Positions 2,665-19,341 of a stretch of 64,000 nucleotides of DNA are shown here, in pieces. The notes beneath the pieces were generated by a model. That model saw only the letters and a list, made by a program, of their open reading frames with translations, did not search any database and had not been told where the DNA came from. Source of the DNA: Myxococcota bacterium (lineage in GTDB: Bacteria > Myxococcota_A > UBA9160 > PR03). The position numbers and the translations under genes are program-made. The DNA is taken from assembly GCA_035506135.1 (NCBI GenBank), contig DATJPY010000044.1, positions 1,528 through 65,527 of the forward strand, in the 5' to 3' direction. The number at the start of each line of letters is the position of its first letter. Position 1 is the stretch's first letter.

Positions 2665-3470
2665 CCGCGCGTCTCGAGCTGTCGCCCGAGCATCCGCACG
2701 TGGCGGTCGTCACGATCGATCGCCCCGAGCGCGCCAACGCGCTCGACCCGCCGACGCTGCGCGCGCTCGCGGGCTGCTGGCGCCGCATCGCCGAGGATCC
2801 CGACATCCGCTGCGCCGTGCTGACCGGGTCGGGCGAGCGGGTCTTCTGCTCGGGCATGGACCTGCGCACCACGATCCCGGCATCGCAGCGCCTGGCGCGC
2901 GGCGAGACCATCGACCCGGACGACTTCGCCGGTCTGCGCGACGCGGCGACCGCCGTGCTGGCCGGCTTCGACCTCGCGACCCCGCTCGTCTGTGCGATCA
3001 ACGGCCACTGCCGCGCCGTCGGCCTCGACCTGATGCTCGCGAGCGAGCTGCGCTACGCGGTGCCGGAGGCGACCTTCGCGCTCGAGGAGGTCGCGCGCGG
3101 TCTCTATCCGACCGGGAATGCGACGGTCCTGCTGCCGCGCCAGGTCGGCTGGGTACACGCCATGGATCTGCTCCTCACCGCTCGGCCGATCCCGGCCGGG
3201 CGTGCGGCCGAGATCGGGCTGGTGAACGAGGTCGTATCGCGCGCGGACCTCCTGCCGCGCGCGCTCGCCGCCGCCGAAGCGATCGCCGGGAATGCGCCGC
3301 TGGCCGTGCGCGAGACGCGTCGCGGCGTGCGCGAGCTGCTGGCGCTCCCGCTCGACGAGGCGTATCGGCGGCAGGAAGAGCTCGGCCGTCCGCTCCGCCG
3401 CACCGACGACGCGCGCGAGGGCGCGCGCGCATTCCTCGAGAAGCGCAGGCCGCGCTGGACGGGTCAGTGA
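2661..3470 (+). CDS. enoyl-CoA hydratase/isomerase (crotonase) family protein
   Basis: In-frame part of ORF 1734..3470 starting at GTG 2661 (GTGA overlap with the upstream stop). Sequence: VAVVTIDRPERANALD..VLTGSGERVFCSGMDL..AINGHCRAVGLDL..REGARAFLEKRRPRW. Confidence 0.85.
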   Translation: MTARLELSPEHPHVAVVTIDRPERANALDPPTLRALAGCWRRIAEDPDIRCAVLTGSGERVFCSGMDLRTTIPASQRLARGETIDPDDFAGLRDAATAVLAGFDLATPLVCAINGHCRAVGLDLMLASELRYAVPEATFALEEVARGLYPTGNATVLLPRQVGWVHAMDLLLTARPIPAGRAAEIGLVNEVVSRADLLPRALAAAEAIAGNAPLAVRETRRGVRELLALPLDEAYRRQEELGRPLRRTDDAREGARAFLEKRRPRWTGQ

Positions 3471-3474
3471 GCGG

Positions 3475-4482
3475 TCAACGTCCGAAGATCTCCAGCATCG
3501 CGTCCAGGTTGGTGCGCACGCGCTCGGGCGAGGCGCCGACGGTCGCGGCGTACAGCAGCGGCTCATCGGTGAGCTCGCGCCACTGCGCGAGCCGGTCGCG
3601 CGCCTCGTCCGGAGGGCAGGCGATGGCGATCTCGTCGACGAGCGCGTCCGGGATCGCCTCGGCCATGGCGCGCACGTCGAAGCGCGCGAGCGCGGCGCGG
3701 CACGCGGCGCCGACCTCGGGCATGCCGTGGAACGCCAGGACCGTGTGGTAGACCGAGACGGTGAAGTAGAAGCCGATCTGGCTCTTCGCGTCGCGCAGCG
3801 CGAGAGCTCGATCGCGCTGGAGCGAGCACATCACGTACGGCGCCAGGCGGCAGCTTCCGGGCGCGCGCCCCGCGGCCGCCTCGGCCGCGCGCAGCCACGG
3901 CAGCGTGCGCTCGCGGTGCCAGCGCCGCGACGCGATCGGGTGACCCACCAGGGCGTCGGCCGTCGAGCCCGCGGCGTCCACCATCCGGCGGTTCACGCCC
4001 GCGACCCAGATCGGGAGCGACGGGCGCGCGGCGCCGGGGCGCGCGAACACCGGGATCGACAGCTTCCAGAACTCGCCGTCGAAGCGGAAGCCACCGCCGC
4101 GGGCGGCTGCGAACATCGCCCGCAGCAGGCGCACCAGCTCCGCCATCCGCGCGGCGGGCCGGGAGAACGGGACACCGAACCACTCCTCGTTCATCCGCCG
4201 CGTGCCGCTGCCCAGACCGAGCACCATGCGGCCGCCGGAGAGCTCGTCGAGGTCGAGGGCCGCGGTGCCGTGCAGGATGGGTGAGCGGGTGAATGCGTTC
4301 GCGATGCCCGTGCCGAGGCAGATGCGCTGCGTCGCCTCCGCGATCGCGCCGAGGATCGCGAAGCCGTGCTGGTTGAAGAACTCGACGCTGAAGACGGAGT
4401 CGAATCCCGCTGCCTCCGCCCGCCGCGCCAGCTCGACGTTGGCGCGTGCTCCTCCTCCGGTGAGGATCAGCCCGATCGGCAC
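3475..4482 (-). CDS. luciferase-like monooxygenase (LLM) class flavin/F420-dependent oxidoreductase
   Basis: Frame of ORF 3475..4575. GTG at 4482 is preceded by AGGAGG. Sequence: VPIGLILTGGGARANVELARRAEAAGFDSVFSVEFF..GRMVLGLGSGTRRMNEEWFG. The cofactor (FMN or F420) cannot be told from the sequence. Confidence 0.8.
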   Translation of the reverse strand: MPIGLILTGGGARANVELARRAEAAGFDSVFSVEFFNQHGFAILGAIAEATQRICLGTGIANAFTRSPILHGTAALDLDELSGGRMVLGLGSGTRRMNEEWFGVPFSRPAARMAELVRLLRAMFAAARGGGFRFDGEFWKLSIPVFARPGAARPSLPIWVAGVNRRMVDAAGSTADALVGHPIASRRWHRERTLPWLRAAEAAAGRAPGSCRLAPYVMCSLQRDRALALRDAKSQIGFYFTVSVYHTVLAFHGMPEVGAACRAALARFDVRAMAEAIPDALVDEIAIACPPDEARDRLAQWRELTDEPLLYAATVGASPERVRTNLDAMLEIFGR

Positions 4483-4534
4483 GCGACTCCTCCTGCGGCC
4501 GCCTCGACGATGCGGGCGGCGGTTCGGACGCGGA

Positions 4535-5167
4535 TCATCCGGCCACCGTCGACGCCAGCAGGAGCTGCGCGCCAAAGTAGAGCGGCAGGCCCCAGAGCTT
4601 GTTCGAGAAGCTCTTGGCGACGAAGCGCTCGCGCGCCACCGCGAGATCGGAGAGGTAGAAGGCGGCTGCGCCGAGCGCGATCGCCCGGCGCGGCTCGTGG
4701 CCCACGGTGCCGAACGCGCACACCAGCATGCCGGAGATCACGACGAGGTACGCGAGCACCGGCCGCTGCAAGCGGACCGGGACGTGCGGGAAGATCGAGC
4801 GCAGCGCCAGCAGGCTGGCCGGCAGCACGGCGAGCGCCGCGATCAGGCAGGCCGAGATGTCGAGACCGCGCACGGCGAAGGCGATGGCGTAGGCGACGTG
4901 GCCGAGCAGGAAGCTCACCAGCCCGGCGAGGAACGCGACGTGCGCACCGCGCGGGATCAGCAATACGTCCCCGAGCGCCGCGAGCAGGAGGCCGCCGAGG
5001 AGCCAGGTGCCGTACCCCGAGTCGAGCGCGCCCGCCGCGAGCGCGGCGGCGACGAAGCCGGCCGACGCGAGGGGCTTCGCGATCCAGACGCCGGGTCGCC
5101 AGCCGAAGCGCTCGGCGACCAGCAGCGCGGCGGTGGCGGCGACCGTGAGCGCGGCGAAGGGAAGCAC
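4535..5167 (-). CDS. YhhN family membrane protein (lysoplasmalogenase family)
   Basis: C-terminal 210 aa of ORF 4535..5989, from GTG 5167, 11 nt after the DUF1295 stop. It is polytopic: LLGGLLLAALGDVLLI..AFLAGLVSFLLGHVAYAIAF..AAAFYLSDLAVARERF. The start codon is uncertain. Confidence 0.7.
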   Translation of the reverse strand: MLPFAALTVAATAALLVAERFGWRPGVWIAKPLASAGFVAAALAAGALDSGYGTWLLGGLLLAALGDVLLIPRGAHVAFLAGLVSFLLGHVAYAIAFAVRGLDISACLIAALAVLPASLLALRSIFPHVPVRLQRPVLAYLVVISGMLVCAFGTVGHEPRRAIALGAAAFYLSDLAVARERFVAKSFSNKLWGLPLYFGAQLLLASTVAG

Positions 5168-5178
5168 GGGCGCCGAGT

Positions 5179-5976
5179 CTATCGGAGCGGGGTGCGGCGC
5201 GGCGGCCGGGGGACGAAGCGGCTGGTCCGCTCGGCGTACGCGCGATAGCCGGGGCGCGTGCGCACGAGCGAGCGCTCGAGCAGCGGGACGCCCGACACGC
5301 GAACCAGGAGGAACGTCATCAGCATGGGGCTCGGCAGCGTCCAGCGGCCGGCTCGGGTCGAAGCTGCCACCGCGAAGATCCCCCACCAGGCGAGCGCATC
5401 GCCGAAGTAGTTCGGGTGGCGGGTGTAGCGCCAGAGCCCGCGGTCCATCACCTGCCCGCGGCTGGTCGGGTCCGCGCGGAAGCGCGCGAGCTGCCAGTCG
5501 CCCACGGATTCGAAGAAGAGCCCGGTCGCCCAGAGCGCGGCGCCGATCGCGTCGAGGGCGCCGAGCCCCGCGGCGGCGGGCCGCAGCAGCGCCACCTGGA
5601 CCGGCAGCGAGACGATCCACATCAGCGCCGCCTGCAGCCCGAACACGGTCCAGAGGCTCACGCGCGCGAAGCGCTCGCCGTGCCGCCGACGCATCGCTGC
5701 GTAGCGAGGATCCTCGCCCCGCCCGCGGTTGCGCCAGCCGAGGTGGGCGCCGAGCCGCAGACCCCAGAGCGCGGTCATCGCGAGGAGCAGCGCGCCGCGC
5801 GCGCCGGGCGCCGGCGCCCCGGCGTACGTAATCGCCGCGATGGCGGCGAATCCCGGCCCCCAGTAGACGTCGACGAGGCTCGCGTCGCGCCGCCGCAGGC
5901 TCACCTGCCAGAGCGCGAAGAAGACCGCCGCGTTCCAGACGGCCGTCGCAGCGAGGCCCGCGGCGAGGGACATCAA
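5179..5976 (-). CDS. DUF1295 / steroid 5-alpha-reductase-like membrane protein
   Basis: ORF 5179..5976. Multi-pass membrane protein with the C-terminal signature RGLWRYTRHPNYFGDALAWWGIF. Confidence 0.8.
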   Translation of the reverse strand: MMSLAAGLAATAVWNAAVFFALWQVSLRRRDASLVDVYWGPGFAAIAAITYAGAPAPGARGALLLAMTALWGLRLGAHLGWRNRGRGEDPRYAAMRRRHGERFARVSLWTVFGLQAALMWIVSLPVQVALLRPAAAGLGALDAIGAALWATGLFFESVGDWQLARFRADPTSRGQVMDRGLWRYTRHPNYFGDALAWWGIFAVAASTRAGRWTLPSPMLMTFLLVRVSGVPLLERSLVRTRPGYRAYAERTSRFVPRPPRRTPLR

Positions 5977-6036
5977 GCCGCTCCCGCACCCCGGCGCGCT
6001 CCCGGCGGCTCGGCGATCACGGGCTCGGCGCCCCCT

Positions 6037-6933
6037 TCACGCGGCCGCGCCGCGCAGCGAGAGCAGGGCCACCTTGCGCTCGATCCCGTCGATGTCGGCC
6101 AGCAGCGCCGAGCCGCGCGGAAGCGCGACCGCAGCCGCTCCCGGCCCGCCGACCCAGAGCTCGACGGACGCGGGCATCAGCCGGCGCAGCGCGTCCAGCG
6201 CGAGGGCCACCGGTGCCCCGTCGCGCTGACAGACGCCGAGCGCGACGGCGGCTGCGCCGAGCGCGTCGGCCGCCTGCGCCACCTCGGCGACGGGAAGATC
6301 GGGCCCCAGGTAGATCGCCCGTCCGCCCGCGTCGACGGCGGCTACCGCCGCCATCAGGACGCCCAGCTCGTGGCGCTCGCCCGGAGGTGTGGTGAAGAGG
6401 ATCGGCGACATCTGGGCGGCGGCGTTCGTCGGACGCAAGACGCTGCCGAGCAGAGTGCGCAGGAGCGCGCTCGCGAGGTGCTCGGATGCGGCACAGAGCG
6501 CGCCGTCCTCCCAGCGCCGACCGATCTCGTTCAGCAGCGGTGAGGCGACGCACCGCGCGAAGCGCGCGCCGCCGAGCGCGGAGAGCTGCAGCCCGAGGAG
6601 TCGCTCGGCATCGGCCGCATCGAGTCGGTCGAGCGCCTCGAGGATCGCCGCGAGCGGCGCGGTCGGTGCAGCAGGAGCCAGCGCGGCGCGCCGATCGAGC
6701 TCGTCGTCCTCCAGTCGCGCGATGTCGCCGATCGGGTGGCCGGCAGCCACCGCGGCGCGCAGGCGCTGCAGGCGGATCACGTCGGCCTCGCGGTAGCGGC
6801 GCGTGCCGCCGTCGGTACGCAGCGGTCGCACCGCGCCATAGCGGCGCTCCCACGCGCGCAGGACGTGCGCGGAGAGGCCCGTGAGCCGGACGACCGCTCC
6901 CACGGAGTAGGTGGGCTCCTGCTCGCGGGTCAT
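6037..6933 (-). CDS. carH: MerR-family, B12-binding CarH/LitR-type light-responsive repressor
   Basis: ATG 6933 within ORF 6037..7323. It has a MerR HTH (YSVGAVVRLTGLSAHVLRAWERRYG). It has the Wx9EH motif (RWEDGALCAASEH) of the CarH four-helix bundle, the ExHxxG cobalamin-binding motif (GERHELG) and a later GG motif (LWVGGPG). Confidence 0.85.
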   Translation of the reverse strand: MTREQEPTYSVGAVVRLTGLSAHVLRAWERRYGAVRPLRTDGGTRRYREADVIRLQRLRAAVAAGHPIGDIARLEDDELDRRAALAPAAPTAPLAAILEALDRLDAADAERLLGLQLSALGGARFARCVASPLLNEIGRRWEDGALCAASEHLASALLRTLLGSVLRPTNAAAQMSPILFTTPPGERHELGVLMAAVAAVDAGGRAIYLGPDLPVAEVAQAADALGAAAVALGVCQRDGAPVALALDALRRLMPASVELWVGGPGAAAVALPRGSALLADIDGIERKVALLSLRGAAA

Positions 6934-6961
6934 CGGCCGAGAATGCTCGGCAGGGAAAGTG

Positions 6962-6984
6962 CTGTCAAGCAAATATATCGACAG
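6962..6984. promoter_or_regulatory. inverted repeat CTGTCAA-N9-TCGACAG in the AT-rich carH/phr intergenic island; candidate CarH operator spanning two back-to-back -35 boxes
   Basis: The sequence ctgtcaagcaaatatatcgacag is one of very few AT-rich stretches in the window. The left arm read on the minus strand is a perfect TTGACA (6968-6963), with CATTCT 17 nt downstream and then 6 nt to the carH ATG. The right arm on the plus strand is TCGACA (6978-6983), with TATCCT at 7002-7007 and then 8 nt to the phr ATG. tatatcgacag fits the CarH direct-repeat pattern nAnnTnnACAn once. Confidence 0.45.
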
Positions 6985-7015
6985 CGAATTACAACGGGCT
7001 CTATCCTGCCCGGAG

Positions 7016-8482
7016 ATGGCGACCGCCTCCGCCCGCCGAGAGCAGGTCATCCACTGGTTCCGGAGCGATCTGCGGCTCGGCGACAACCGCGCGTTGGCGG
7101 CCGCGGCGTCCCGCGCCGACGCCCTGGCTCTGGTCTTCGTCCTCGACGACCGCCTGCTCCACGGCGACGCGGTCGGCCCGCCGCGGCGGCGCTTCCTCGT
7201 TCGATCGCTCGTGTCCCTGGCCACCTCGCTCGCAGCGCGCGGCCATCGCCTGCGGATCCACCGCGGTGACCCGGTCGCCGTGGTGCCGGCGCTCGCCCGC
7301 GCGCTGCGCGCCGATCGCATCACCTGGAATCGCGACGACGGCGCCTACGCGAGGCGCCGCGACGCCGCGGTGCGTGCCGCCGCCGCGCGCGATGGCGTCG
7401 CGGTGGAGGAGCACAAGGACCGGGTCGTGTTCGAGAGCGGCGAGCTTCGCACGCGTGCGGGCGACGCCTTTCGCGTTTATACACCGTTCCGCAACGCCTG
7501 GTGGGCGCGCTTCCGGGAGGAGCCCCAGGAGCCCCTTGGGCCGCTGCGCCTGCCGGAGCCGCTGACGGACGACGGGCTGGGGCCGGGCGAGCCGCTCGCC
7601 GACACCGAAGAGGATCCGGCCGAGCTGCCGCCCGCGGGCGAGGCCGCCGCGCTGCGACGGCTCGAGCGCTTCCTCGCCGGCCCGGCGTGGACCTACGCCG
7701 AGCGGCGCGATCGCCCCGACCTCGACGGCACCTCGCGCCTCTCGCCACACCTCCGATTCGGCGCCATCTCGATCCGCCGCTGCGTCCACCGCGCGCTCGA
7801 TCGGATGCGCGAGGAGCCGCGCGCAGCGCCCGGCCTCCGCCGATGGCTCGACGAGCTGGTGTGGCGCGAGTTCTATCACGCGGTGCGCACCGAGCACCCG
7901 GACCTGCGGCGGCGCGCGCTGCGCCGCGAGCTCGACGGGCTCGCCTGGGAGGAGGACCCGGTAGGGTTCGAGGCCTGGTGCCGCGGCCGCACCGGCTTTC
8001 CCTTCGTCGACGCCGCGATGCGCCAGCTCGCCGCCACGGGCTGGATCCACAACCGGGCCCGCATGGTGGCGGCCAGCTTCCTGACGAAGGACCTCGGCAT
8101 CGACTGGCGTCGCGGCGAGCGCTTCTTCATGCAGCGCCTGGTGGACGGCGATCCGGCGAGCAACGCGGGTGGCTGGCAGTGGGCGGCGTCGACGGGCACC
8201 GATGCCCAGCCCTGGTTCCGAGTCTTCCATCCCGTGCGCCAGGGCGAGCGCTTCGATCCGGAGGGCCGCTACGTGCGCCGCTTCGTGCCGGAGCTGCGCG
8301 CATGCGACGATCGGTTCGTGCAGCGCCCGTGGGAGGCGGTGCCCGCAGTGCGCGGATACCCTCGTCCCATCGTCGACCACGCGGCGCGGCGGCTGGCGGC
8401 GCTGCGCCGCTTCGAGGCGCTGCGCGCGAGGGCGGGGAGGCGGCATGGGCGCAGACCGTCGTGCGGGCCCGCGTCTTCCTGA
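7016..8482 (+). CDS. phr: deoxyribodipyrimidine (CPD) photolyase, class I
   Basis: ATG 7016 within ORF 6911..8482. Sequence: VIHWFRSDLRLGDNRAL..TSRLSPHLRFG..WREFY..GWIHNRARMVAASFL..DGDPASNAGGWQWAASTG. Confidence 0.95.
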   Translation: MATASARREQVIHWFRSDLRLGDNRALAAAASRADALALVFVLDDRLLHGDAVGPPRRRFLVRSLVSLATSLAARGHRLRIHRGDPVAVVPALARALRADRITWNRDDGAYARRRDAAVRAAAARDGVAVEEHKDRVVFESGELRTRAGDAFRVYTPFRNAWWARFREEPQEPLGPLRLPEPLTDDGLGPGEPLADTEEDPAELPPAGEAAALRRLERFLAGPAWTYAERRDRPDLDGTSRLSPHLRFGAISIRRCVHRALDRMREEPRAAPGLRRWLDELVWREFYHAVRTEHPDLRRRALRRELDGLAWEEDPVGFEAWCRGRTGFPFVDAAMRQLAATGWIHNRARMVAASFLTKDLGIDWRRGERFFMQRLVDGDPASNAGGWQWAASTGTDAQPWFRVFHPVRQGERFDPEGRYVRRFVPELRACDDRFVQRPWEAVPAVRGYPRPIVDHAARRLAALRRFEALRARAGRRHGRRPSCGPASS

Positions 8483-9452
8483 GCAGCGCCTGCTCGGGCC
8501 GGACGCGGCGCCGATCCGGATCGGTGTCTCCGCGTGCCTGCTCGGGCGCGAGGTCCGCTGGGACGGCGGTCACCGGCGCGACTCCTTCCTGGTCGACGAG
8601 CTCGGCCCCTACGTGGCGTGGGTGCCGGTGTGTCCGGAGGTCGAGCTCGGCATGGGCGTGCCGCGCGAGACGGTGCGTCTCGTCGCGCGCGGCGGCGGCG
8701 TGCGGCTGCTCGCCGAGCGGGGCGGCGTCGACCACAGCGACGCGATGCGCGCCTGGGCGCGGCGCCGGCTGCGCGAACTCGCGGCGCTCGAGCTCTCCGG
8801 CTACGTGCTGAAGAAGGACTCCCCGAGCTGCGGCCTCGAGCGCGTTCCGGTCTGGAACGCGAGCGGCCGGCCGGAGCGGCGCGGACGCGGCGTCTTCGCC
8901 GAGGCGCTGCTCGAGGCGTGCGAGGCGCTGCCGGTCGAGGACGAGGACCGGCTGCGCGACGCGCGCCTGCGCGAGAACTGGATCGAGCGGATCTTCGCCT
9001 ACCGCAGGCTCCGCTCGTTCTTCGACGGACCCTGGACGCCGCGCCGGCTCGCCGCCTTCCACGCCGCGCACGAGCTCCAGCTCCGGGCGCACGCGCCCGC
9101 TGCCCACCGCGCGCTCGGAAGGCTGGTCGCCCGGGCCGGATCGCTCCCGCGCGCCGCCGCGCGCCGTACCTACGAGCTTGGCTTCATGGCGGCGCTGCGC
9201 CGCCCGGCCAGCGCGGCGCGACACGTCGAGGTGTTGAAGCGCGCGGTCGCGCGCTTCCGCGGCCGGCTCGACCCGGCCGGACGCCGTGCGCTGCTCGCGT
9301 CGATCGACGACTACCGGGCGGGTCGCGTGCCGCTGGTGGTTCCGATCGCGCTGGTGCGGCACCACGTCACGCGGCTTGCCCTCGACGAGCTGGCGGGGCA
9401 GGTCTACCTGCAGCCGCACGCGATGGAGCTGATGCTCCGCAATAGGGTGTAG
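8445..9452 (+). CDS. ybgA: YbgA-family protein (DUF523 + DUF1722)
   Basis: ATG 8445 (GGGGAGG upstream) within ORF 8169..9452. DUF523 motif: IRIGVSACLLGREVRWDGG..CPEVELGMGVPR. The C-terminal helical DUF1722 part follows. This ATG is the only canonical start upstream of the conserved motif, which gives a 38-nt overlap with phr. Confidence 0.85.
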   Translation: MGADRRAGPRLPEQRLLGPDAAPIRIGVSACLLGREVRWDGGHRRDSFLVDELGPYVAWVPVCPEVELGMGVPRETVRLVARGGGVRLLAERGGVDHSDAMRAWARRRLRELAALELSGYVLKKDSPSCGLERVPVWNASGRPERRGRGVFAEALLEACEALPVEDEDRLRDARLRENWIERIFAYRRLRSFFDGPWTPRRLAAFHAAHELQLRAHAPAAHRALGRLVARAGSLPRAAARRTYELGFMAALRRPASAARHVEVLKRAVARFRGRLDPAGRRALLASIDDYRAGRVPLVVPIALVRHHVTRLALDELAGQVYLQPHAMELMLRNRV

Positions 9453-9465
9453 GACCCGGGCCGGG

Positions 9466-9927
9466 CTAGTTCATCGGTCCCAGGCCCTGGCGCGGATCGA
9501 GCCGCATGATCTTCGGCTCGCCCATCAGCCCGCGGAACAGTCCGATGGCGGCGTCCGAGAAGCCGTACTTCTGCCGGAACACCTCGGTGACGTCGTCGAT
9601 CACGACCGGATCGGTGATGCGCGTTGCGCGGAGCGGATAGTCGCGTCCGGCGATGCGCACCACGACGTCGGGGTTGCGCTCGACGTTGGCGCCCCAGTGC
9701 GTGCCGCCGGTGCGGATGTAGCCCTCGCCCTTGTTCACCGCGAGCCAGATCGTGGTGGTGCGGGTGCTGCCGTCCTCGTTGGTGCTGAGGATCTCGATGG
9801 TGTCGACGTCCGCCACCTGGCTCCAGTTGACGGGGTGGGCGCGCGCGGGCGCGGCGGCGAGGCACAGCGCGGCAATGGCCGCGGCCACGCGGGCGCGCGC
9901 TGCGAGGGCGCGAAGGGCTCGCGGCAT
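9466..9927 (-). CDS. secreted hypothetical protein (possible split-barrel, DUF385/PNPOx-like fold)
   Basis: ATG 9927 (GGAGG upstream) within ORF 9466..9993. Signal peptide: MPRALRALAARARVAAAIAALCLAAAPARA. The mature part TTIWLAVNKGEGYIRTGGTHWGANVERNPDVVVRIAGRDY loosely recalls deazaflavin-dependent nitroreductase-like barrels. The function call is weak. Confidence 0.55.
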   Translation of the reverse strand: MPRALRALAARARVAAAIAALCLAAAPARAHPVNWSQVADVDTIEILSTNEDGSTRTTTIWLAVNKGEGYIRTGGTHWGANVERNPDVVVRIAGRDYPLRATRITDPVVIDDVTEVFRQKYGFSDAAIGLFRGLMGEPKIMRLDPRQGLGPMN

Positions 9928-10019
9928 CGGCAATCCTCCCCCGGGCGAGCATACAAGAACGGGCGCACCGCGCGGGTGTCGGCGCGGTACCATCCGGCAC
10001 CCCCGAGAAGGAGTCTTGC

Positions 10020-11528
10020 ATGGCCGCCGCCGCGATTCCGCTGCGCGAAGAGGTGTCGAGCTTCCTGAGGCGCCCGCGCCCGATGCTGATCGGAGGGCGC
10101 TGGGTCGAAGCGGCCTCGGGGAGGAGCTTCGAGACGCTCGATCCCGCCACGGGCGAGACCCTCGCGCGGGTGGCGGAGGGCGACAGCCAGGACGTCGAGC
10201 GAGCGGTCGCCGCGGCGCGGCGGGCGTTCGAGGGGCCGAGCTGGCGCGGCATCACGCCGGCCGAGCGCGGCCGCCTGCTGATGCGGCTCGCCGACGCGGT
10301 GGAGGCGCACGCCGACGAGCTCGCGCAGCTCGAGTCGCTCGACAACGGGAAGCCCGTGGCGGTGGCGCGAGGCGCGGACCTCCCGCTCGCCGCCGACTGC
10401 CTGCGCTACTACGCGGGTTGGGCGACCAAGATCGAGGGCGAGACGATCCCGGTGTCGGTGCCGTTCGCGCCGGGCGCGCGCTTCCTCAACTACACGCTGC
10501 GCGAGCCGATCGGCGTGGTCGGCCAGATCATCCCGTGGAACTTCCCGCTGTTGATGGCGGCGTGGAAGCTCGGCCCCGCGCTGGCGGCGGGCTGCACCGT
10601 GGTGCTGAAGCCCGCCGAGCAGACGCCGCTCTCGGCGCTCCGCCTCGGCGAGCTGGTGCAGGAGGTCGGCTTCCCGGATGGCGTCGTCAACATCGTCACC
10701 GGGTTCGGCGAGACCGCGGGCGCTGCGCTCGCTGCGCACCCCGGAGTCGACAAGGTCGCCTTCACCGGGTCGACCGAGGTCGGGCGCCTGATCGTGCGCG
10801 CCGCGGCCGGCAACCTGAAGAAGGTGTCGCTCGAGCTGGGCGGCAAGTCGCCCAACATCGTGCTGCCCGACGCCGACCCCGCGGCGGTCGCCGAGGGCGC
10901 CGCCGGCGCGATCTTCTTCAACCACGGCCAGTGCTGCTGCGCCGGCTCGCGGCTCTACGTCCACCGGAGCCTGTTCGACGACGTGGTCGACGAGGTCTGC
11001 GCGCGCGCTCGCTCGATCAAGGTCGGGCCCGGGATGAGCCCCGACACCGAGATGGGTCCGCTGGTGTCCGACGAGCAGTACCGGCGCGTTACCGGCTACA
11101 TCGAGTCGGGGCAGCGCGACGGCGCGCGCACCCTGATCGGCGGCGGCCGGCCCGCGGCGCTGCGGCGCGGCTACTTCGTCGAGCCCACGGTCTTCACCGA
11201 CACCGACCACTCGATGGCGGTGGTGCGGGAGGAGATCTTCGGGCCCGTGCTGACGGCGATGCCGTGGGACGACCTCGACGACCTGGTGCGCCAGGCCAAC
11301 GACACCATCTACGGGCTCGCGGCCGGCGTGTGGACCCGCGACGTCGCAAGCGCGCACCGGCTCGCCGCCGGGCTGCGCGCGGGAACGGTCTGGGTCAACT
11401 GCTACAACGTCTTCGATGCCGCCGCTCCCTTCGGCGGCTACAAGCAGTCGGGCTGGGGCCGCGAGATGGGCCACCACGCGCTGCAGCTCTACACCGAGGT
11501 GAAGAACGTCTGGGTGAACCTCGCGTAG
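10020..11528 (+). CDS. NAD(P)+-dependent aldehyde dehydrogenase
   Basis: ORF 10020..11528. Motifs: FTGSTEVG, LELGGKSP, and catalytic Cys in FFNHGQCCCAGSR. AAGGAG lies upstream. Confidence 0.95.
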   Translation: MAAAAIPLREEVSSFLRRPRPMLIGGRWVEAASGRSFETLDPATGETLARVAEGDSQDVERAVAAARRAFEGPSWRGITPAERGRLLMRLADAVEAHADELAQLESLDNGKPVAVARGADLPLAADCLRYYAGWATKIEGETIPVSVPFAPGARFLNYTLREPIGVVGQIIPWNFPLLMAAWKLGPALAAGCTVVLKPAEQTPLSALRLGELVQEVGFPDGVVNIVTGFGETAGAALAAHPGVDKVAFTGSTEVGRLIVRAAAGNLKKVSLELGGKSPNIVLPDADPAAVAEGAAGAIFFNHGQCCCAGSRLYVHRSLFDDVVDEVCARARSIKVGPGMSPDTEMGPLVSDEQYRRVTGYIESGQRDGARTLIGGGRPAALRRGYFVEPTVFTDTDHSMAVVREEIFGPVLTAMPWDDLDDLVRQANDTIYGLAAGVWTRDVASAHRLAAGLRAGTVWVNCYNVFDAAAPFGGYKQSGWGREMGHHALQLYTEVKNVWVNLA

Positions 11529-11600: not shown

Positions 11601-13034
11601 TCAGCGCGCCGGGGCGGGAAGCTTCACCTCGGCGACCTCGCACAGCTCCGCGAAGTTCCGCTCGATCGCCACGGCGAAGTCGTGCAGGTCCGGGACCAGG
11701 TCCCAGTCCGAGACGAAACCCCAGTGCAGCCGGCCGGCGTAGCTGAACAGCGCCACGCCGAGGCTCTGGTGGGTGAGCAGGTTGAGCATCGGATACGTCT
11801 CGAGCACGCGCGCGCCGAGCAGGTAGAGCGGAACCTGCGGGCCCGGCACGTTGGTGACGACCAGGTTCGCCGCGCGGTTGCGGTAGGCCATGCGCGACGC
11901 GAGCGAGAGCAGCGTCGGGACGGTCCACTCGGCGACCGCGGCGAGCACGCCGGCGCCCATCGCCTGCTTCGACTCCTTGAGCCGCGCGGTGATCTCGCAG
12001 GTGAGAGCGAGCCGGCGGCGCGGGTTGGTCTCGCCCGTCGGCAGGCTGGCTGCCCAGAGCGCGATCTGGTTGCCCGTGGTTCCGCGCGCGCTGGCCGCCC
12101 GGACGCTGACCGGCACCATCGCGCGGAGATCCAGGGTGCGCTGGGCGCTGCGCGGAACGCCGCGCTGCTCCAGGAAGTCGCCGAGGGCGCCCGCCACGAT
12201 GGCGAGGACCACGTCGTTCACGGTGCCGCCCAGCCGGTCTTTCACCGCCTTCACGGGCCGAAGGTCGAGCGTGGTCCAGTCGAAGCGGCGATGCGGGCCG
12301 AGCTCGCGGTTGAGCGGCGTCTCGGAGGCGGCGCTGAGGCCGGCCGCCAACGTCTCGCCGAGCGCCGCGACCTGCTCGCGTACACGCGACAGCGTCGCAC
12401 CCGGGCTCCGCGCGGCGCCCGCGAGCGCGCGCGCCGCGGTGAACGGCATTCCGAGCCGCCGCTGCAGCTCGCCGGTGGCGATCTCCCAGGCGCTCGGGGT
12501 GGGCTCGGGCAGCCAGGCCGGCGGCTCCGGGACCGTCTCGTCGGGCGCCGGCGAGAGCAGCATGCTCAGCAGGTCGACGCCGGCGATGCCGTCGATCATG
12601 CAGTGGTGGGTCTTGGAGATCAGCGCCGCGCGATCGCCCTCGAGGCCCTCGACGATCCACAGCTCCCAGAGCGGCTTTCCAGGGTCGAGCCGCTGCGACA
12701 GGATGCGCGCGGCCAGCCGCTTGAGCTGCCGCTCGTCGCCCGGGCGCGGCAGGGCCGTGTGACGGACGTGGTAGTGCAGGTTGAAGCGGTCGTCGTCGAT
12801 CCAGACCGGGTGGTTCTCGATCGGGATCCAGGCGAGGCGCTGCCGGTAGCGCGGGATGCGGTGGAGCCGCGCGCCGACGTAGCTCCGAACGCGATCGGCG
12901 TCGAGCCCGCCGTCCTCGTTGCGGAGCGGGCCCGTCTCGAGGAGCAGCACGGCGCCGACGTGCTGCGGGTAGCGCTCGTCCTCGAAGTCCAGGAAGGTGC
13001 GGTCGAGGGCGGAGAGGCGTTCGTAGCGGGCCAA
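11601..13034 (-). CDS. wax ester synthase / acyl-CoA:diacylglycerol acyltransferase (WS/DGAT)
   Basis: ORF 11601..13034. Active-site motif HHCMIDGIAGVDL (HHxxxDG). TTG start with AGGAGG 7 nt upstream. Confidence 0.9.
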   Translation of the reverse strand: MARYERLSALDRTFLDFEDERYPQHVGAVLLLETGPLRNEDGGLDADRVRSYVGARLHRIPRYRQRLAWIPIENHPVWIDDDRFNLHYHVRHTALPRPGDERQLKRLAARILSQRLDPGKPLWELWIVEGLEGDRAALISKTHHCMIDGIAGVDLLSMLLSPAPDETVPEPPAWLPEPTPSAWEIATGELQRRLGMPFTAARALAGAARSPGATLSRVREQVAALGETLAAGLSAASETPLNRELGPHRRFDWTTLDLRPVKAVKDRLGGTVNDVVLAIVAGALGDFLEQRGVPRSAQRTLDLRAMVPVSVRAASARGTTGNQIALWAASLPTGETNPRRRLALTCEITARLKESKQAMGAGVLAAVAEWTVPTLLSLASRMAYRNRAANLVVTNVPGPQVPLYLLGARVLETYPMLNLLTHQSLGVALFSYAGRLHWGFVSDWDLVPDLHDFAVAIERNFAELCEVAEVKLPAPAR

Positions 13035-13089
13035 CGGAGGACCTCCTGCCGCGCGCGGTCCGAGCCGATGCTAGCGCTGCCGGCGGCGG

Positions 13090-13500
13090 CTACGCCGGTT
13101 GGAAGAAGGGCACCGCGGCGGTGTCCGAGACGCGCTCGAAGGCGACGGACACCGGCAGGTCGAGGGCGAGGTGCCCGGGCGCGAGGCCGCGCAGGCCGCT
13201 CACCAGCCGCACGCCCTCCTCCATCTCGACCACGACGACCGCGTACGGCGTCGCCCCCGCGAACGGCGGGAAGGGGGCCTGGTGGGTCACGGTCCACGAG
13301 AACACGCGCCCGCGTCCGGACGAGGGGCTCCAGCTCCAGGCGTCCGATCCGCATGACGCGCAGATGTGTCGCGGCAGGTGGCGCCAGGCGCCGCAGTCCG
13401 TGCAGCGCTGGAAGGAGAGGCGCCCGCGCGCGCACTCGGCGTAGAACTGCGCGGCCAGCTCGTCGATCTCGCTGGAGAGGATGGGCGTGACCTGTCCCAC
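13090..13500 (-). CDS. Zn-ribbon/OB-fold DUF35 protein (thiolase partner subunit)
   Basis: ORF 13090..13500. Four-Cys ribbon CTDCGAWRHLPRHICASCGS followed by an OB-fold region. It lies 3 nt downstream of the thiolase-like gene. Confidence 0.85.
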   Translation of the reverse strand: MGQVTPILSSEIDELAAQFYAECARGRLSFQRCTDCGAWRHLPRHICASCGSDAWSWSPSSGRGRVFSWTVTHQAPFPPFAGATPYAVVVVEMEEGVRLVSGLRGLAPGHLALDLPVSVAFERVSDTAAVPFFQPA

Positions 13501-13503
13501 GGA

Positions 13504-14688
13504 TCAGCGCCCCCGCCGCAGGATCGCGATCGAGCCGTCCCCGAAGTCGCCCCAGCCGGTGACGAGCCCGAGCTCCGCGTCCTTCACCTGGGCGGCGCCC
13601 GCCTCGCCGCGGAGCTGGCGGGTGGCCTCGATCAGGTGATTGATGCCCCAGACGTGCGCCTGGGAGAGCAGGCCGCCGTGCGTGTTCATCGGCAGCTCGC
13701 CGCCGAGCTCGATGCGGCCTCCCTTCACGAAGTCGCCGCTCTCGCCGCGGGCGCAGAGCCCGAGCGCCTCGAGCTGCAGCAGCACGACGTAGGTGAAGCA
13801 GTCGTAGATCTGGAGGAAGTCGACCTCGGACGCGCGGATGCCGGCCATCGCGAGGGCGCGCGGCGCGGCGAAGGAGAGCCCGATGCGGAACGGGTCGCGG
13901 CGCGCCGCGATGTCGTCGGCGGGGTAGGGGTGGCCCTCGGCGGCGGCGACCAGCACCACCGGCGGACGCGCCAGATCGCGCGCCCGCTCGGCGCTCGTCA
14001 CCAGCACGGCGCCCGCGCCGTCCGTCTCGAGGCAGCAGTCGTAGAGCCGGAACGGCTCCGAGATCCAGCGCGCGGACAGGTACTGCTGCAGCGTGAGCGG
14101 GCGCCCCCGCATCAGCGCGCGCGGGTTGTGCTGGGCGTGGGCGCGGCACGCCAGCGCCACGGCGCCCATCGATTCCGGCTCGATTCCGTACATCTTCATG
14201 TGTCGCGTCGCCAGCCAGGCGTAGAACTGTACCGGCGAGACGGCGCCGTACGGCAGGTAGAAGTCCCGTACCGTATGGGTCATGGCGTTCAGGCCGAGCG
14301 GCGACCGCCGCGGGCGCGCGCCCGGCTTCGGGCGGATCGCGCTGTAGCCGTTCCAGCCGAGCACGATCAGCACGTGGCGCGCGACGCCGGTCGCCACCGC
14401 CATGGCCGCGCTCTGCAGCGCCGCGGTCGGGCTTGCGCCACCCATGCTCACGGTCGCGGCGTAGCGCAGCTCCTCGATCCCGAGGTTCGCGGCGAGCTCC
14501 TCGGCGGTGGTCTCGATGGGCGGCGGGACGAGGCCGTCGACGTCGCGCGGCGAGAGGCCCGCGTCGGCGATGGCGCCGCGCGCGGCCTCGAGCATGAGCT
14601 GGGCCGCGCTGCGGTCGGAGCCGCGGACGTAGTCGGTCTCGCCGATCCCGGCGATGGCGGCGCGCTCGCGGATCGAGGACTCGCTCAC
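13504..14688 (-). CDS. SCP-x/Ltp-type thiolase-like protein
   Basis: C-terminal 394 aa of ORF 13504..16827, from GTG 14688 (GTGA overlap with the hydrolase stop). Sequence: [64 protein letters not shown]. Confidence 0.85.
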
Positions 14689-15572
14689 GAGGGGCGCCCC
14701 AGCTCGCGCAGGAATGCGAGCACCGCGTCGGTGAAGCGGTCGTTGCGGTCCCCGGCGACCATGTGTCCGGCGCCGCGCACGTCGACGAACCGGGCCTTCG
14801 GCGCGAGCTCGAGGAAGTGCCGCGCGCCCTGCTCGGAGAGGAGGTCCGAGAGCCGGCCGCGCACGAGCAGCGTCGGGACGCGCAGCCGGCGCGCGGCGGC
14901 CTCCATGCGATCGCCCTCCTGGCCCGGCCGCGGCCCGTGTCCCGGCTGCAGGAAGAGGGGATCCCAATGCCAGCGCCAGCGCCCGTCGTCGCCGCGGCGC
15001 AGGTTCTTCGCGAGCCCCGAGAGATCGCTCGGCCGCTCGCGGTGCGGCAGGTAGGCGGCGACCGCGTCGGCGGCCTCGTCGAGGCTTGCGAAGCCCTCGG
15101 GCCGTGCCTGCATGAAGGAGATGATCCGCATCGCGCCCTCGGGCTCGATGCGCACCGCGATGTCGACCAGGACGAGCGCGCGGCTGATCGAGCGCTCCGA
15201 CTCTGCCTCGGCGAGCAGCGCGGTGATGCCGCCGAGCGACGCGCCCACCAGCACCGGCGGCGCGGTGAGCTGCGCAACCACCGCGCGCAGGTCCGCGACG
15301 AAGGCGTCGACGCTGTAATCGCCGCGCGCGTCCCAGCCGCTGTCGCCGTGGCCGCGCAGGTCGAGCGCGACGGCGTACCAGCCCTCGCGCGCGAGCGCGG
15401 CGGCCGTGCCGCCCCACGCGTGGCGCGTCTGACCGCCGCCGTGGAGCAGCAGAACGGGCGGCGCTGAGGGATCTCCCCACGCGTCGGCGTGGAGCGCGAG
15501 GCCGTCGCGCCCGGCGAGCTCCCACCGCGCGACCGGCGGGTCGCTCGGGGACTGCGGGCTGGGCTCGGCCAT
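14685..15572 (-). CDS. alpha/beta-fold hydrolase
   Basis: ATG 15572 (GAGGAG upstream) within ORF 14685..15668. Oxyanion motif [13 protein letters not shown] and nucleophile elbow GASLGG. Confidence 0.85.
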
Positions 15573-15648
15573 GCGGCTCCTCGCTCGGGCGCGCGGCGTA
15601 GATAGCCGCGCCTCGGGTATCGTGCCAGCAACAGGCGGAGGCGTGGGC

Positions 15649-16467
15649 ATGGGAAGGCTCGACAGCAAGGTGGCGCTGGTGACGGGCGGCGCGAGCGGGA
15701 TCGGCGCGGCAACGGTGCGGCGCTTCGCGCGCGAAGGCGCGCGCGTCGTGATCGTGGATCTGCAGGACGCACTCGGCGAGGCGCTCGCCGAGGAGCTCGG
15801 AGCCGCGACCGTCTACCAGCGCGCCGATGTGTCGCGCGAGGCGGACGTCGTCGCCGCCGTCGACCGCGCCGTCGACCAGTTCGGGCGGCTCGACGTCTGC
15901 TTCAACAATGCCGGGCTCGGGGGCGTCACCGGTCCGATCGCCGAGATCCCGGCGGCCGAGTTCGATACGACCGTGGGCGTGCTGCTGCGCGGTGTCTTCC
16001 TCGGGATCAAGCACGCGGCGCGCGTGATGCTGCCGCAGCGCGCGGGCAGCATCCTGAGCACCGCGAGCGTCGCGGGCCTGCAGGCCGGCTTCGGCCCGCA
16101 CGTCTACAGCGCCTGCAAGGCGGCCGTCGTGCACCTGACCCGATCGGTGGCGATGGAGCTCGGCGAGCGCGGCGTTCGCGTGAACTGCATCTGCCCCGGC
16201 GGCATCGTGACCCCCCTCCTTACCCGCGGCTTCGCGGGCATGGCGGGCGGCGAGGATCTCGTGAAGGGCTTCCTCGCGTCCGCACAACCGATCCGCCGCG
16301 CCGGACTTCCGGACGACATCGCGGAGGCTGCTCTGTTTCTGGCGAGCGACGCGTCGAGCTTCGTGAACGGGCACGCGCTCGTGGTGGACGGCGGCCTCAC
16401 CGGCGGGCGCCAGTGGTCGACGATGCCGGAGGCGATCCGCACCTACCGGCCCGAGGGCGGCCCCTGA
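15649..16467 (+). CDS. SDR family oxidoreductase
   Basis: ATG 15649 within ORF 15571..16467. Motifs: [26 protein letters not shown]. Confidence 0.9.
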
Positions 16468-16515
16468 TGCGGTAACGTCCCGGGCGGGGGAAGTCGGCGC
16501 CTCGAGAGGATTCAC

Positions 16516-17748
16516 ATGTCCCAGGCCTTCCCGCCGCCCGGCGCGTTCCCGCCTCCGCAGCTCCTCGCCGACCCGTATCCCTTCTACGCCGCGCTCCGCG
16601 CGAGCCAGCCGGTGTTCCGCCTGCCGGTGGGCGAGAGCAGCGCTCCCGGGGTCTGGCTGCTCACGCGGCACGCGGACGTCCACGCCGTGCTGCGCGACGC
16701 GCGCTTCTCGGCCGATCGCCGCCGCGCGCGCATCGTCCGCGAGAACATCGACCGGCTCGCGATCGGCATGGCGCTCGGCGAGGAAGGCGGGCTGCGCACC
16801 ATGCTGGTCATGGACCCGCCCGATCACACCCGCGTGCGCGGCCTGGTGAGCAAGGCCTTCACCCCGCGCCGCGTCGCCGCCCTGCGCCCGCGCATCGAGC
16901 AGATCATCGACGAGCTGCTCGCCGAGCCGGCGGCGCGCGGATCGATGGACGTGATGGCGGACTTCGCCGCGCCGCTGCCGGCGATCGTGATCGCCGAGCT
17001 GCTAGGCGTGCCGGCCGAGGACCACCGCGAGTTCCGGCAGTGGTCGAGCGAGCTGGTCTCGCTCGTGGGCTCCGCCAATCCACTGGAGATCCGCGAGCGG
17101 TTCGAGAAGGCGCTCGGCCGCATCCTCGACTACCTGCGCGGCGTGATCGCCGAGCGGCGGCGCGCGCCGGCCGACGACCTGATCAGCGGCATGATCGAGG
17201 CGCAGGAGGAGCGCGACGCGCTCTCCGACGTCGAGCTGCTCGCCACCAGCAACCTGCTGCTGCTCGCGGGCCACGAGACCACCACCAACCTGATCGGCAA
17301 CGGCACGCTCGCGCTGCTGCGGCACCCCGACGAGCTCGCGCGCCTGCGCGCCGACCACGCGCTCCTGCCGGACGCGATCGAGGAGCTGCTGCGCTACGAC
17401 AGCCCCGTACAGGCGACCGTGCGCGTCGCGACGCAGGACGCCGAGGTCGGCGGCCAGAAGATCCCGGCCGAGGCGCTGGTCATCGTGGGGATCGGGGCGG
17501 CGAACCGCGACCCCGCGGTCTTCCGCGACCCGGATCGCCTCGACCTCGCGCGCGGCGGCAACCACCACCTCTCGTTCGGTCTCGGCGTGCACTTCTGCCT
17601 CGGCGCGTCGCTGGCGCGCCTCGAGGCCGAGCTCGCCTTCGGTGCGCTGCTCGAGCGCTTCCCACGCCTCGACCTCGCCACCGAAGCGGTCTCGCATCGC
17701 GCGAACCTGATCCTGCGCGGGCTCACCGCGCTGCCGGTGCGCTGCTGA
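16516..17748 (+). CDS. cytochrome P450
   Basis: ORF 16516..17748. I-helix [18 protein letters not shown] (ExxR), and heme loop [15 protein letters not shown]. No ferredoxin or reductase gene is adjacent. Confidence 0.95.
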
Positions 17749-17800
17749 GCGAGGCCGGAGGCGCGGGCTCCACTCCAGGGCTTCCGAGGAAGAGGCTGCG

Positions 17801-19270: not shown

Positions 19271-19310
19271 CCCGGTCGCGCCCGCTCTCTCGACGCCCTG
19301 CGCGCCGATC

Positions 19311-19326
19311 TGTAACGTGTTTCAAA
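19311..19326 (+). promoter_or_regulatory. AT-rich element TGTAACGTGTTTCAAA upstream of the SDR/LLM operon (CRP/FNR-like half-sites TGTAA-N6-TCAAA, or a promoter element)
   Basis: This is the only AT-rich stretch in the 71-nt gap 19271-19341. It ends 4 nt before the AGGAGG of the gene starting at 19342. Each half-site matches TGTGA-N6-TCACA at 4 of 5 positions. Confidence 0.25.
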
Positions 19327-19341
19327 TCCGAGGAGGCGAGC

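Follow-up and report, generated by a model that had tools for sequence, protein, structure and literature searches.

The CarH photoreceptors of Thermus thermophilus, Myxococcus xanthus and Bacillus megaterium share three parts: a MerR-type winged helix-turn-helix domain with the RxWERRY recognition helix, a four-helix bundle with the Wx9EH motif and a Rossmann-type B12 domain. Their genes are divergent from a light-induced operon, with the operator lying over a -35 element. The characterised operators are tandem 11-bp direct repeats, and for Sorangiineae and Nannocystineae CarH operators have been described that lie across -35 elements and act on pairs of divergent promoters (PMC9304148). In cultured Myxococcales, carH is located beside crt genes (PMC9304148). 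We analysed a carH locus in a 64-kb stretch of a Myxococcota contig (DATJPY010000044.1, positions 1,528 to 65,527; hereafter the window). The protein has the same three parts, and the gene is also divergent from a putative light-induced operon, with a candidate operator over the -35 element. The differences are in the neighbours, which are phr, rudS and lipid genes instead of crt genes; in the candidate operator, a palindrome of two TnnACA hexamers instead of three to four tandem 11-bp direct repeats; and in two motif positions, with Glu instead of His after the motif Trp and GxC instead of SxT/V. The genes probably form a light-response locus under the control of a CarH/class I LitR photoreceptor, with a photo-repair arm and a membrane-lipid arm. 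CarH/LitR photoreceptors with phr-rudS targets are well described, and the core of the locus is ordinary. The unreported feature is the clade-specific entry of YhhN, in relatives together with an acyltransferase, an SRPBCC protein and a DCC1-like protein, into the photoreceptor's own operon.

Other described systems resemble parts of the locus. The LitR proteins of Pseudomonas putida and Pseudomonas mendocina (PplR1/PmlR) repress photolyase, RudS and membrane fatty-acid genes, and their operator is palindromic (TGTACA-N12-...), like the candidate in the window (PMC9758184, PMC11417400). They belong to class II, with the four-helix bundle only and light perception via a LOV partner, whereas the regulator in the window has a full B12 module (class I). 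The lipid gene of the Pseudomonas system is ufaM; here, genes for DUF1295 and YhhN proteins are present. In the sigmaE-ChrR regulon of Rhodobacter sphaeroides (RSP1087-1091 with ufaD and ufaO; ufaM) and the ChrR/MerR system of Vibrio cholerae, photo-oxidative stress induces lipid-modifying enzymes (PMC7380195; PMC5241685). Photolyase induction was shown for the V. cholerae blue-light regulon (PMC5241685). Control in both is exerted not by a B12 photoreceptor but by a pair of extracytoplasmic function sigma factor and anti-sigma factor sensing singlet oxygen. The CarF/plasmalogen pathway of M. xanthus is also a myxobacterial light response with a special membrane lipid. Its components are CarF, CarR, CarQ, CarA and CarS, and only Cystobacterineae have it (PMC9131029, PMC9304148); none of the five turned up here. 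The lysoplasmalogenases TMEM86A/B, Lpg1991 and Rv1401 have the Pfam family, eight transmembrane helices and the K/GD/H/G/SD/Y residue set in common with the YhhN protein of the window (PMC11994398). None of these characterised enzymes has been reported as controlled by light or as encoded in one operon with a photoreceptor.

Identity of the regulator

The gene map was re-derived by an independent gene call based on codon position (GC3) and by Pfam (Table 1). The window has a G+C content of about 75%. An initial annotation, made from the sequence without database searches, had given gene positions, gaps, an overlap of phr with the gene behind it and both CarH motifs; all were reproduced by the gene call, Pfam and a reading of the sequence. 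It had called the regulator a MerR-family CarH/LitR protein with Wx9EH and ExHxxG motifs. Domains, alignment with T. thermophilus CarH and motifs bear this out. The 298-aa protein matched all three expected domain models, MerR_1 (1.7e-15), B12-binding_2 (5e-6, above the cut-off) and B12-binding (2.7e-5), and the histidine ligand is kept. CarH of T. thermophilus (5c8d) aligns over the full length with residues 8-286 (34% identity, E = 5.5e-34). An identical protein is annotated in a metagenome-assembled genome of a 'Myxococcota bacterium'.

The recognition helix RxWERRY is present as R26-A-W-E-R-R-Y32, and W28-R31 and G33 are invariant among the homologues in alignment A1. The Wx9EH motif, which sets CarH apart from the B12-independent CarA (PMC9304148), is intact (W141-x9-E151-H152; WEDGALCAASEH). 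W141, E151, H152 and H188 align with W131, E141, H142 and H177 of T. thermophilus CarH, His177 being the cobalt ligand, and are invariant in 18/18 CarH homologues (56-74% identity). The B12 module reads E186-R-H188-E-L-G191, x41, G233xC235, x26, GG262, with His and GG intact. Published hallmarks of CarH proteins are RxWERRY, an intact Wx9EH and D/ExHxxG/P-x41-SxT/V-x22-27-GG (PMC9304148). The protein has all of them except the Ser of the SxT/V element.

The structural comparison with Thermus CarH proposed in the initial annotation points in the same direction. An AlphaFold2 model of the protein reached a mean predicted local distance difference test score (pLDDT) of 88.2. In a Foldseek search of the PDB, ranks 1-13 were occupied by 5C8D, 5C8E and 5C8F (E ~1e-18), with 5C8D/5C8E as top folds. 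The B12-binding half superimposes on the Thermus structures with TM-scores of 0.76-0.79 and a root-mean-square deviation of about 3 Å. From sequence, motifs and predicted fold, the regulator is identified as a CarH/class I LitR-type photoreceptor, predicted to depend on adenosylcobalamin (AdoCbl).

Residue 142, after the motif Trp, is a Glu; Thermus CarH has His132 at this position. With Glu, a bis-His photoproduct cannot arise as it does in Thermus CarH, and the light-state chemistry may therefore be different. Among the A1 homologues this position is variable, with H, Y, E, K or S.

A putative shared control region

The intergenic region between carH and phr comprises 82 nt (6934-7015) and holds the perfect inverted repeat GCTGTC-N13-GACAGC. 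Its 21-nt consensus, TGTCNANNTNNTTNNTTGACA, occurs once in the window against an expectation of 0.04. In 19 related loci, the palindromic element is located 60-150 nt upstream of carH and always contains the carH -35 TTGACA. On the minus strand, the palindrome ends with this hexamer, followed by 17 nt, the -10 CATTCT, 6 nt and the carH ATG. The same promoter layout is present ahead of carH in the nearest relative (loci L081/L082). On the plus strand, the other arm of the palindrome, TCGACA, serves as putative phr -35, followed by 18 nt and TATCCT; the phr ATG (7016) stands 8 nt after the -10. The phr promoter is the only sigma-70-like site in 3300-9700 (6.4 kb), and shuffled sequence gave a mean of 0.0. 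An ATG 6 nt past the -10 makes the carH mRNA probably leaderless, and the phr transcript is also read as probably leaderless.

The candidate operator is thus an inverted TnnACA pair (TTGACA/TCGACA) that overlaps both -35 elements. A third degenerate repeat lies 10 nt off in some loci only. Since one palindrome supplies both -35 boxes of back-to-back promoters, a repressor bound there would shut down transcription in both directions. The presence of another CarH operator in the window was considered and rejected: the full consensus is found only at 6963-6983. A bare TGTC-N13-GACA at 39755-39775 falls within coding sequence (gene 39721-40887), has no AT-rich spacer and is probably a chance match.

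The photo-repair arm

The divergence of carH from a class I cyclobutane pyrimidine dimer (CPD) photolyase gene, noted in the initial annotation, was confirmed. The best PDB match of the phr product is the E. coli photolyase (1DNP, 9e-102), followed by the Anacystis enzyme (1TEZ/1OWL, 4e-92), far ahead of (6-4) photolyases and cryptochromes. The NCBIfam model PRK10674 matched with E = 6e-122 and 408 bits, below its equivalog cut-off of 506. By sequence, the phr product is a class I CPD photolyase.

The second gene of this arm shares 38 nt with phr, and its start is preceded by the Shine-Dalgarno sequence GGGGAGG. Its product carries 2-thiour_desulf at residues 26-167 and DUF1722 at residues 211-325. 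In an alignment with TudS (6Z92), the cysteines of SACLLG, CPEV and SPSCG, the expected [4Fe-4S] ligands, are kept. A 2024 study characterised TudS-DUF1722 fusions under the name RudS; the enzyme takes 4-thiouridine out of tRNA and makes the growth delay under UVA shorter. RudS was noted within LitR-controlled phrB operons, and phrB-litR-rudS light operons are known (PMC11417400). The right half of the locus therefore represents a known arrangement. The sequence identifies the gene after phr as RudS, a tRNA 4-thiouridine desulfidase, and not as an E. coli-type YbgA. The initial label as YbgA with the E. coli pairing has to be revised, because E. coli YbgA is a stand-alone DUF1722 protein and the window encodes a TudS-DUF1722 fusion; the DUF523/DUF1722 content stated with it is correct.

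The lipid arm

For comparison, 82 CarH-centred loci were collected, 80 from a scan of one genome per species and two (L081/L082) from metagenome contigs. Conservation of the order carH-DUF1295-yhhN in related genomes, which the initial annotation had put forward for checking, was found in 11 of the 82 loci, all from the closest Myxococcota clade, and in two further contigs. In the clade that keeps yhhN in the carH operon, CarH identity is 60-79%. The nine closest loci that reach far enough (L001-3, L005-10; CarH 60-65% identical) have the divergent phr-rudS arm opposite carH. On the carH strand, they read carH, PlsC-like acyltransferase, SRPBCC, DUF1295, (DCC1-like), YhhN. The two further contigs have the same operon, in which the genes after carH overlap by 4 nt (start/stop) or stand about 30 nt or less apart. 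The nearest relative (L081/L082, CarH 74% identical) reads carH, acyltransferase, DUF1295, YhhN, LLM, and its flanking synteny is that of the window. Run over the 82 loci, a YhhN hidden Markov model detected the family only in these two groups (L001-3, L005-10 and L081/82).

Genes for the acyltransferase, SRPBCC, DCC1-like and furan fatty acid (FuFA) proteins had no significant tblastn match in the window; the FuFA-type genes looked for were a CMAS-type methylase, an amine-oxidase-type desaturase and DUF1365. Lacking acyltransferase, SRPBCC and DCC1-like genes, the three- or four-gene operon of the window is a trimmed version. The lipid arm is a cut-down copy of the clade-conserved operon carH-PlsC-like acyltransferase-SRPBCC-DUF1295-DCC1-like thiol oxidoreductase-YhhN. 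The gene order initially described for the carH operon stands. It is not the full form typical of the clade, in which the acyltransferase, SRPBCC and DCC1-like genes are added before yhhN.

In the window, carH and the DUF1295 gene are separated by 60 nt (63 nt if DUF1295 starts at ATG 5973), DUF1295 and yhhN by 11 nt, and yhhN and the LLM gene by 52 nt. A scan of 3300-9700 detected neither terminator-like nor promoter-like sites in these gaps. The operon of the window probably runs on into the LLM oxidoreductase gene. This gene follows yhhN only in the window and in L081/L082 (after 22 nt) and is 3 kb away in L002. It was rejected as a conserved operon member because it is not at that position in most of the clade. 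The NCBIfam model TIGR03617 matched the LLM protein with 198 bits, below its cut-off. The DUF1295 protein belongs to the steroid-reductase/ICMT/PEMT superfamily, with a weak Steroid_dh match (1.6e-6) and matches to PEMT and ICMT.

Table 1. Features of the carH locus in the window (positions count from the first nucleotide of the window)
Feature	Position	Strand	Evidence and remarks
LLM-class (luciferase-like, F420/FMN-type) oxidoreductase	3475-4482	-	Pfam Bac_luciferase 5e-58; AGGAGG Shine-Dalgarno; possible fourth operon gene
yhhN, 210 aa, YhhN-family protein with eight transmembrane helices	4535-5167	-	Pfam YhhN PF07947 9.4e-34; third operon gene
DUF1295 membrane protein, 265 aa	5179-5976	-	Pfam DUF1295 2.7e-75; second gene of carH operon
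carH, 298 aa, MerR-family AdoCbl-type photoreceptor repressor (class I LitR/CarH)	6037-6933	-	Pfam, match to T. thermophilus CarH, motifs, AlphaFold2 fold
Putative carH promoter	6940-6968	-	-35 TTGACA (6968->6963), 17-nt spacer, -10 CATTCT (6945->6940); from sequence
Candidate CarH operator, palindrome TGTCAA-N9-TCGACA (TGTC-N13-GACA)	6963-6983	strandless	Inverted repeat; kept in relatives
Putative phr promoter	6978-7007	+	TCGACA, 18 nt, TATCCT; sigma-70-like scan
phr, class I CPD photolyase, 488 aa	7016-8482	+	Pfam DNA_photolyase 1.3e-47 and FAD_binding_7 1.6e-80
rudS-like gene, TudS (DUF523) and DUF1722 fusion, 335 aa	8445-9452	+	Pfam 2-thiour_desulf 7.6e-38 and DUF1722 1.3e-24

Beyond the locus, a DUF2255 gene (9466-9993, minus strand) with weak matches to F420/PPOX-class proteins adjoins the phr/rudS arm on the opposite strand, across the clade. 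An aldehyde dehydrogenase gene (10020-11528, plus strand) begins 0.6 kb past rudS and is syntenic only in the closest relatives. Neither was accepted as a member of the unit, since they are located on the other strand or outside it. The region 11601-20106 encodes a WS/DGAT wax-ester synthase, a ChsH2-like OB-fold protein, a thiolase, an alpha/beta hydrolase, two SDRs, a P450 and an amidohydrolase. This lipid/steroid-type catabolic block is in large part syntenic with L081, L082 and L084.

The YhhN protein

The AlphaFold2 model of YhhN has eight helices, with a pLDDT of 93.9 and a predicted TM-score (pTM) of 0.89. Conservation across 120 orthologues is 97% or higher at eight residues: K31, G66, D67, H90, G166, S173, D174 and Y197. 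In TMEM86A/B, mutation of K43, G81, D82, H104, G182, S189, D190 or Y213 affects lysoplasmalogenase activity, mostly severely (PMC11994398). All eight residues are present in the window protein and the G-7-S-D-23-Y spacings are identical, the residues being paired by motif and spacing and not by direct alignment. The YhhN of E. coli, an organism that makes no plasmalogens, aligns with the window protein at the first three motifs, KP, GD and H. Since the eight residues are family-wide, they do not point to a substrate.

A sequence search retrieved no solved structure of YhhN or TMEM86, and a fold search gave only weak matches similar to rhodopsin or G-protein-coupled receptors (GPCRs; E > 0.3). 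The model superimposes on such bundles with TM-scores of 0.4-0.49, a resemblance also noted by others (PMC9052158).

A search for YhhN representatives gave 232 clusters at E <= 1e-30, and a profile search then provided six context look-ups. The neighbourhoods of these six homologues from outside the clade, including one from Paraliomyxa miuraensis that is annotated as 'lysoplasmalogenase' and one from an 11-Mb genome, were free of light-related genes. In L086-L088 (YhhN at 7001-7630; P. miuraensis and two Myxococcota), conserved neighbours are DUF1684, a DUF938 methyltransferase and an MbnB/TglH-HvfC fusion. A literature search found YhhN and CarH nowhere mentioned together.

The wider neighbourhood of carH

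SRPBCC is the commonest neighbour of carH overall, present in 33 of the 82 loci. It is followed by photolyase (27/82), RudS (24/82), acyltransferase (21/82), DUF1295 (21/82, within 10 kb), DCC1-like (17/82) and YhhN (11/82); CMAS/CFA synthase, amine-oxidase and DUF1365 genes are near carH in 11-12 loci each. At least one of acyltransferase, SRPBCC, DUF1295, CFA/CMAS, UfaD-like, UfaO-like (DUF1365) and Chalcone_3 genes occurs in 49 of the 82 loci. The CMAS/UfaM-like, amine-oxidase/UfaD-like and DUF1365 families of the Rhodobacter and Vibrio systems flank carH in relatives such as L028, in which DUF1295 ends the operon: carH-sigma70-CMAS-amine oxidase-DUF1365-CFA synthase-Chalcone_3-MFS-acyltransferase-SRPBCC-DUF1295 (L028:10001-20859).

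These families have precedents in light and singlet-oxygen responses. In the sigmaE-ChrR singlet-oxygen regulon of Rhodobacter, UfaD (amine-oxidase-type), UfaO and UfaM (CMAS-type) make furan fatty acids (PMC7380195). Judged from its size, UfaO is likely the DUF1365 protein. In Pseudomonas, ufaM and a gene for an FAD oxidoreductase are LitR targets (PMC9758184), and blue light induces a gene for cyclopropane fatty acid (CFA) synthase in Vibrio (PMC5241685). In Chlamydomonas, DUF1295 shows SAK1-dependent induction by singlet oxygen (PMC4067076). The family also recurs beside heliorhodopsin genes, together with a fatty-acid-binding DegV (bioRxiv 10.1101/2021.02.16.431466). A role in light-induced changes of membrane lipids is therefore well supported as a theme for DUF1295 and is not new in principle. 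The lipid arm belongs to a known theme, that of light or singlet-oxygen regulons that remodel membrane lipids. The idea of a light-controlled lipid remodelling, raised in the initial annotation, fits this neighbourhood, with acyltransferase, SRPBCC, DUF1295 and furan or cyclopropane fatty-acid genes by carH in relatives.

Furan-fatty-acid-type genes flank carH in L028, L016, L024, L026, L030, L035, L043, L049, L058 and L076. The arrangement points to FuFA synthesis being under B12/light control in several uncultured lineages. In L045-47, L052-54, L065, L073, L075 and L077-80, which are distant CarH loci from metagenome-assembled genomes of Gemmatimonadota, Acidobacteriota and Anaeromyxobacteraceae, an SRPBCC/Polyketide_cyc-like gene lies divergent and directly upstream of carH. 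In L023, L025, L028 and L034, the gene directly downstream of carH encodes a full-length RpoD-like sigma-70 factor (regions 1.2, 2, 3 and 4), which hints at a light-induced sigma-factor cascade in these genomes.

Proposed mechanism and alternative explanations

In the dark, AdoCbl-loaded CarH oligomers would bind the palindromic operator, by analogy with CarH of Thermus, Myxococcus and Bacillus. One bound repressor would block the carH and phr promoters through the -35 hexamers of the shared operator. In the light, AdoCbl would be photolysed, CarH would leave the DNA and two probably leaderless transcripts would be formed. The phr-rudS transcript would enable CPD repair in UV-damaged DNA and the removal of photosensitive 4-thiouridine from tRNA. 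The carH-DUF1295-yhhN(-LLM) transcript would provide autoregulation and two integral-membrane lipid enzymes. Our best guess is that YhhN may hydrolyse a lysolipid that builds up in illuminated membranes, which would be of the vinyl-ether type should lipids of this kind exist in the organism, and that DUF1295 may reduce or methylate a lipid double bond or head group. We infer the operator binding and all enzyme activities of the locus.

Several observations weigh against this reading. The carH -10 element, CATTCT, is weak and below the detection of the consensus scanner. The inverted geometry of the candidate operator, compared with the known tandem 11-bp repeats, makes the mode of CarH binding uncertain. 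Within CarH, the Pfam B12-binding domain scores 24.4 bits, below the gathering score of 32.1, and the Ser of the SxT/V element is replaced by Gly233. The NCBIfam CarH equivalog model NF052513 (TransRegCarH) scores 155.4 bits against a cut-off of 400; it still matches residues 5-273 with E = 1.7e-45 and appears to be narrow. In our view, both missed cut-offs reflect a sequence that has diverged from those in the model seeds and not a lost domain. The lipid arm may be decaying, as acyltransferase, SRPBCC and DCC1-like genes are missing from the window. Decay is also seen in relatives: only a photolyase remnant lies between rudS and carH in L081 (6821-7240) and L082 (9582-10000), and in L083 (GCA_023384285.1) DUF1295 is cut to 83 aa (12697-12948), with yhhN intact. 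It is from the layout alone that the light regulation of both arms is inferred.

The initial annotation had proposed a plasmalogen bridge between the CarH and singlet-oxygen branches of the light response. YhhN would work as a lysoplasmalogenase on plasmalogens of the same cell, and the carH operon would join the B12 branch with the plasmalogen/singlet-oxygen branch. This is unlikely; the bridge was drawn from YhhN family membership and found no support. The family does include the lysoplasmalogenases TMEM86A/B, Lpg1991 and Rv1401, and the eight proposed catalytic residues are kept with matching spacing. The retention of yhhN in the carH operon despite CarH identities down to 60% would also suit this function, as would the PlsC-like acyltransferase of relatives and the GDSL lipase near carH in some of them, which would fit a deacylation/reacylation cycle, and the aldehyde dehydrogenase gene past rudS. 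Plasmalogens mediate singlet-oxygen signalling in M. xanthus (PMC9131029). However, the plasmalogen desaturase CarF is reported only in Cystobacterineae, and the proposed cleavage of plasmalogen by singlet oxygen yields 2-acyl-lysophosphatidylethanolamine and an aldehyde, not the 1-alkenyl lysolipid used by lysoplasmalogenase (PMC9131029). YhhN proteins also exist in plasmalogen-free bacteria such as Mycobacterium tuberculosis (PMC9052158). The conserved residues are a property of the whole family, including the motifs shared with E. coli YhhN, and the six homologues from outside the clade have no light-related neighbours. No gene for plasmalogen synthesis was seen, and an approximate PEDS1 (CarF) probe had no match in the window or in 91 loci (1.5 Mb), a result that is uninformative for the whole genome.

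It is very unlikely that DUF1295, yhhN and LLM are mere neighbours of carH, transcribed independently of light from one or more constitutive promoters of their own. The 60-nt and 52-nt gaps might contain promoters that, at 75% G+C, escape a consensus scan, and the gene set behind carH varies among relatives. Yet the scan found no promoter-like or terminator-like site in the gaps, the carH-to-yhhN genes of relatives overlap by 4 nt or lie 16-31 nt apart, and at least 11 loci keep the order though their flanking genes differ. Most improbable is an action of DUF1295 and YhhN on an isoprenoid, sterol, hopanoid-like or chromophore-like lipid, for example in a light-induced polyene or triterpenoid change, instead of on phospholipids. 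The Steroid_dh, PEMT and ICMT matches of DUF1295, the weak rhodopsin/GPCR likeness of the YhhN model and the nearby steroid/lipid-catabolism-type genes (ChsH2-like, thiolase, P450, SDRs) would be in agreement with such a substrate. The partners in relatives are of the phospholipid type (PlsC-like acyltransferase; FuFA/CFA genes in distant loci), and carotenoid, sterol or hopanoid genes are absent beside carH in the clade loci, which argues against it.

The preferred reading, a CarH-controlled locus with photo-repair and membrane-lipid arms, can be extended. In this uncultured soil Myxococcota clade, the B12 photoreceptor might directly switch on a membrane-lipid repair pathway, with YhhN as a light-induced vinyl-ether/lysolipid hydrolase. 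We consider this extension unlikely. The pathway would consist of the acyltransferase, an SRPBCC carrier, DUF1295, the DCC1-like oxidoreductase and YhhN, and the window would keep only the DUF1295-YhhN core.

Implications

The palindrome that supplies both -35 boxes could serve as a small bidirectional light switch in synthetic biology. For the myxobacteria, the association of carH is new: the clade ties it to genes for DNA and tRNA photo-repair and for membrane lipids, and all cultured myxobacteria that were examined link it to carotenoid genes. Also new is the predicted co-transcription of DUF1295 and YhhN, two families without a settled physiology in bacteria, with the sensor. Their function becomes testable by a simple dark/light switch. 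The occurrence of DUF1295 in the singlet-oxygen response of Chlamydomonas, by heliorhodopsin genes and at the end of FuFA-type carH operons makes a conserved light-related lipid role look worth pursuing. If the light-induced lipid repair pathway is true, it would be the first case of a bacterial YhhN enzyme with a physiological function on lipids of its own cell, and B12 photoreception would be linked to ether-lipid turnover.

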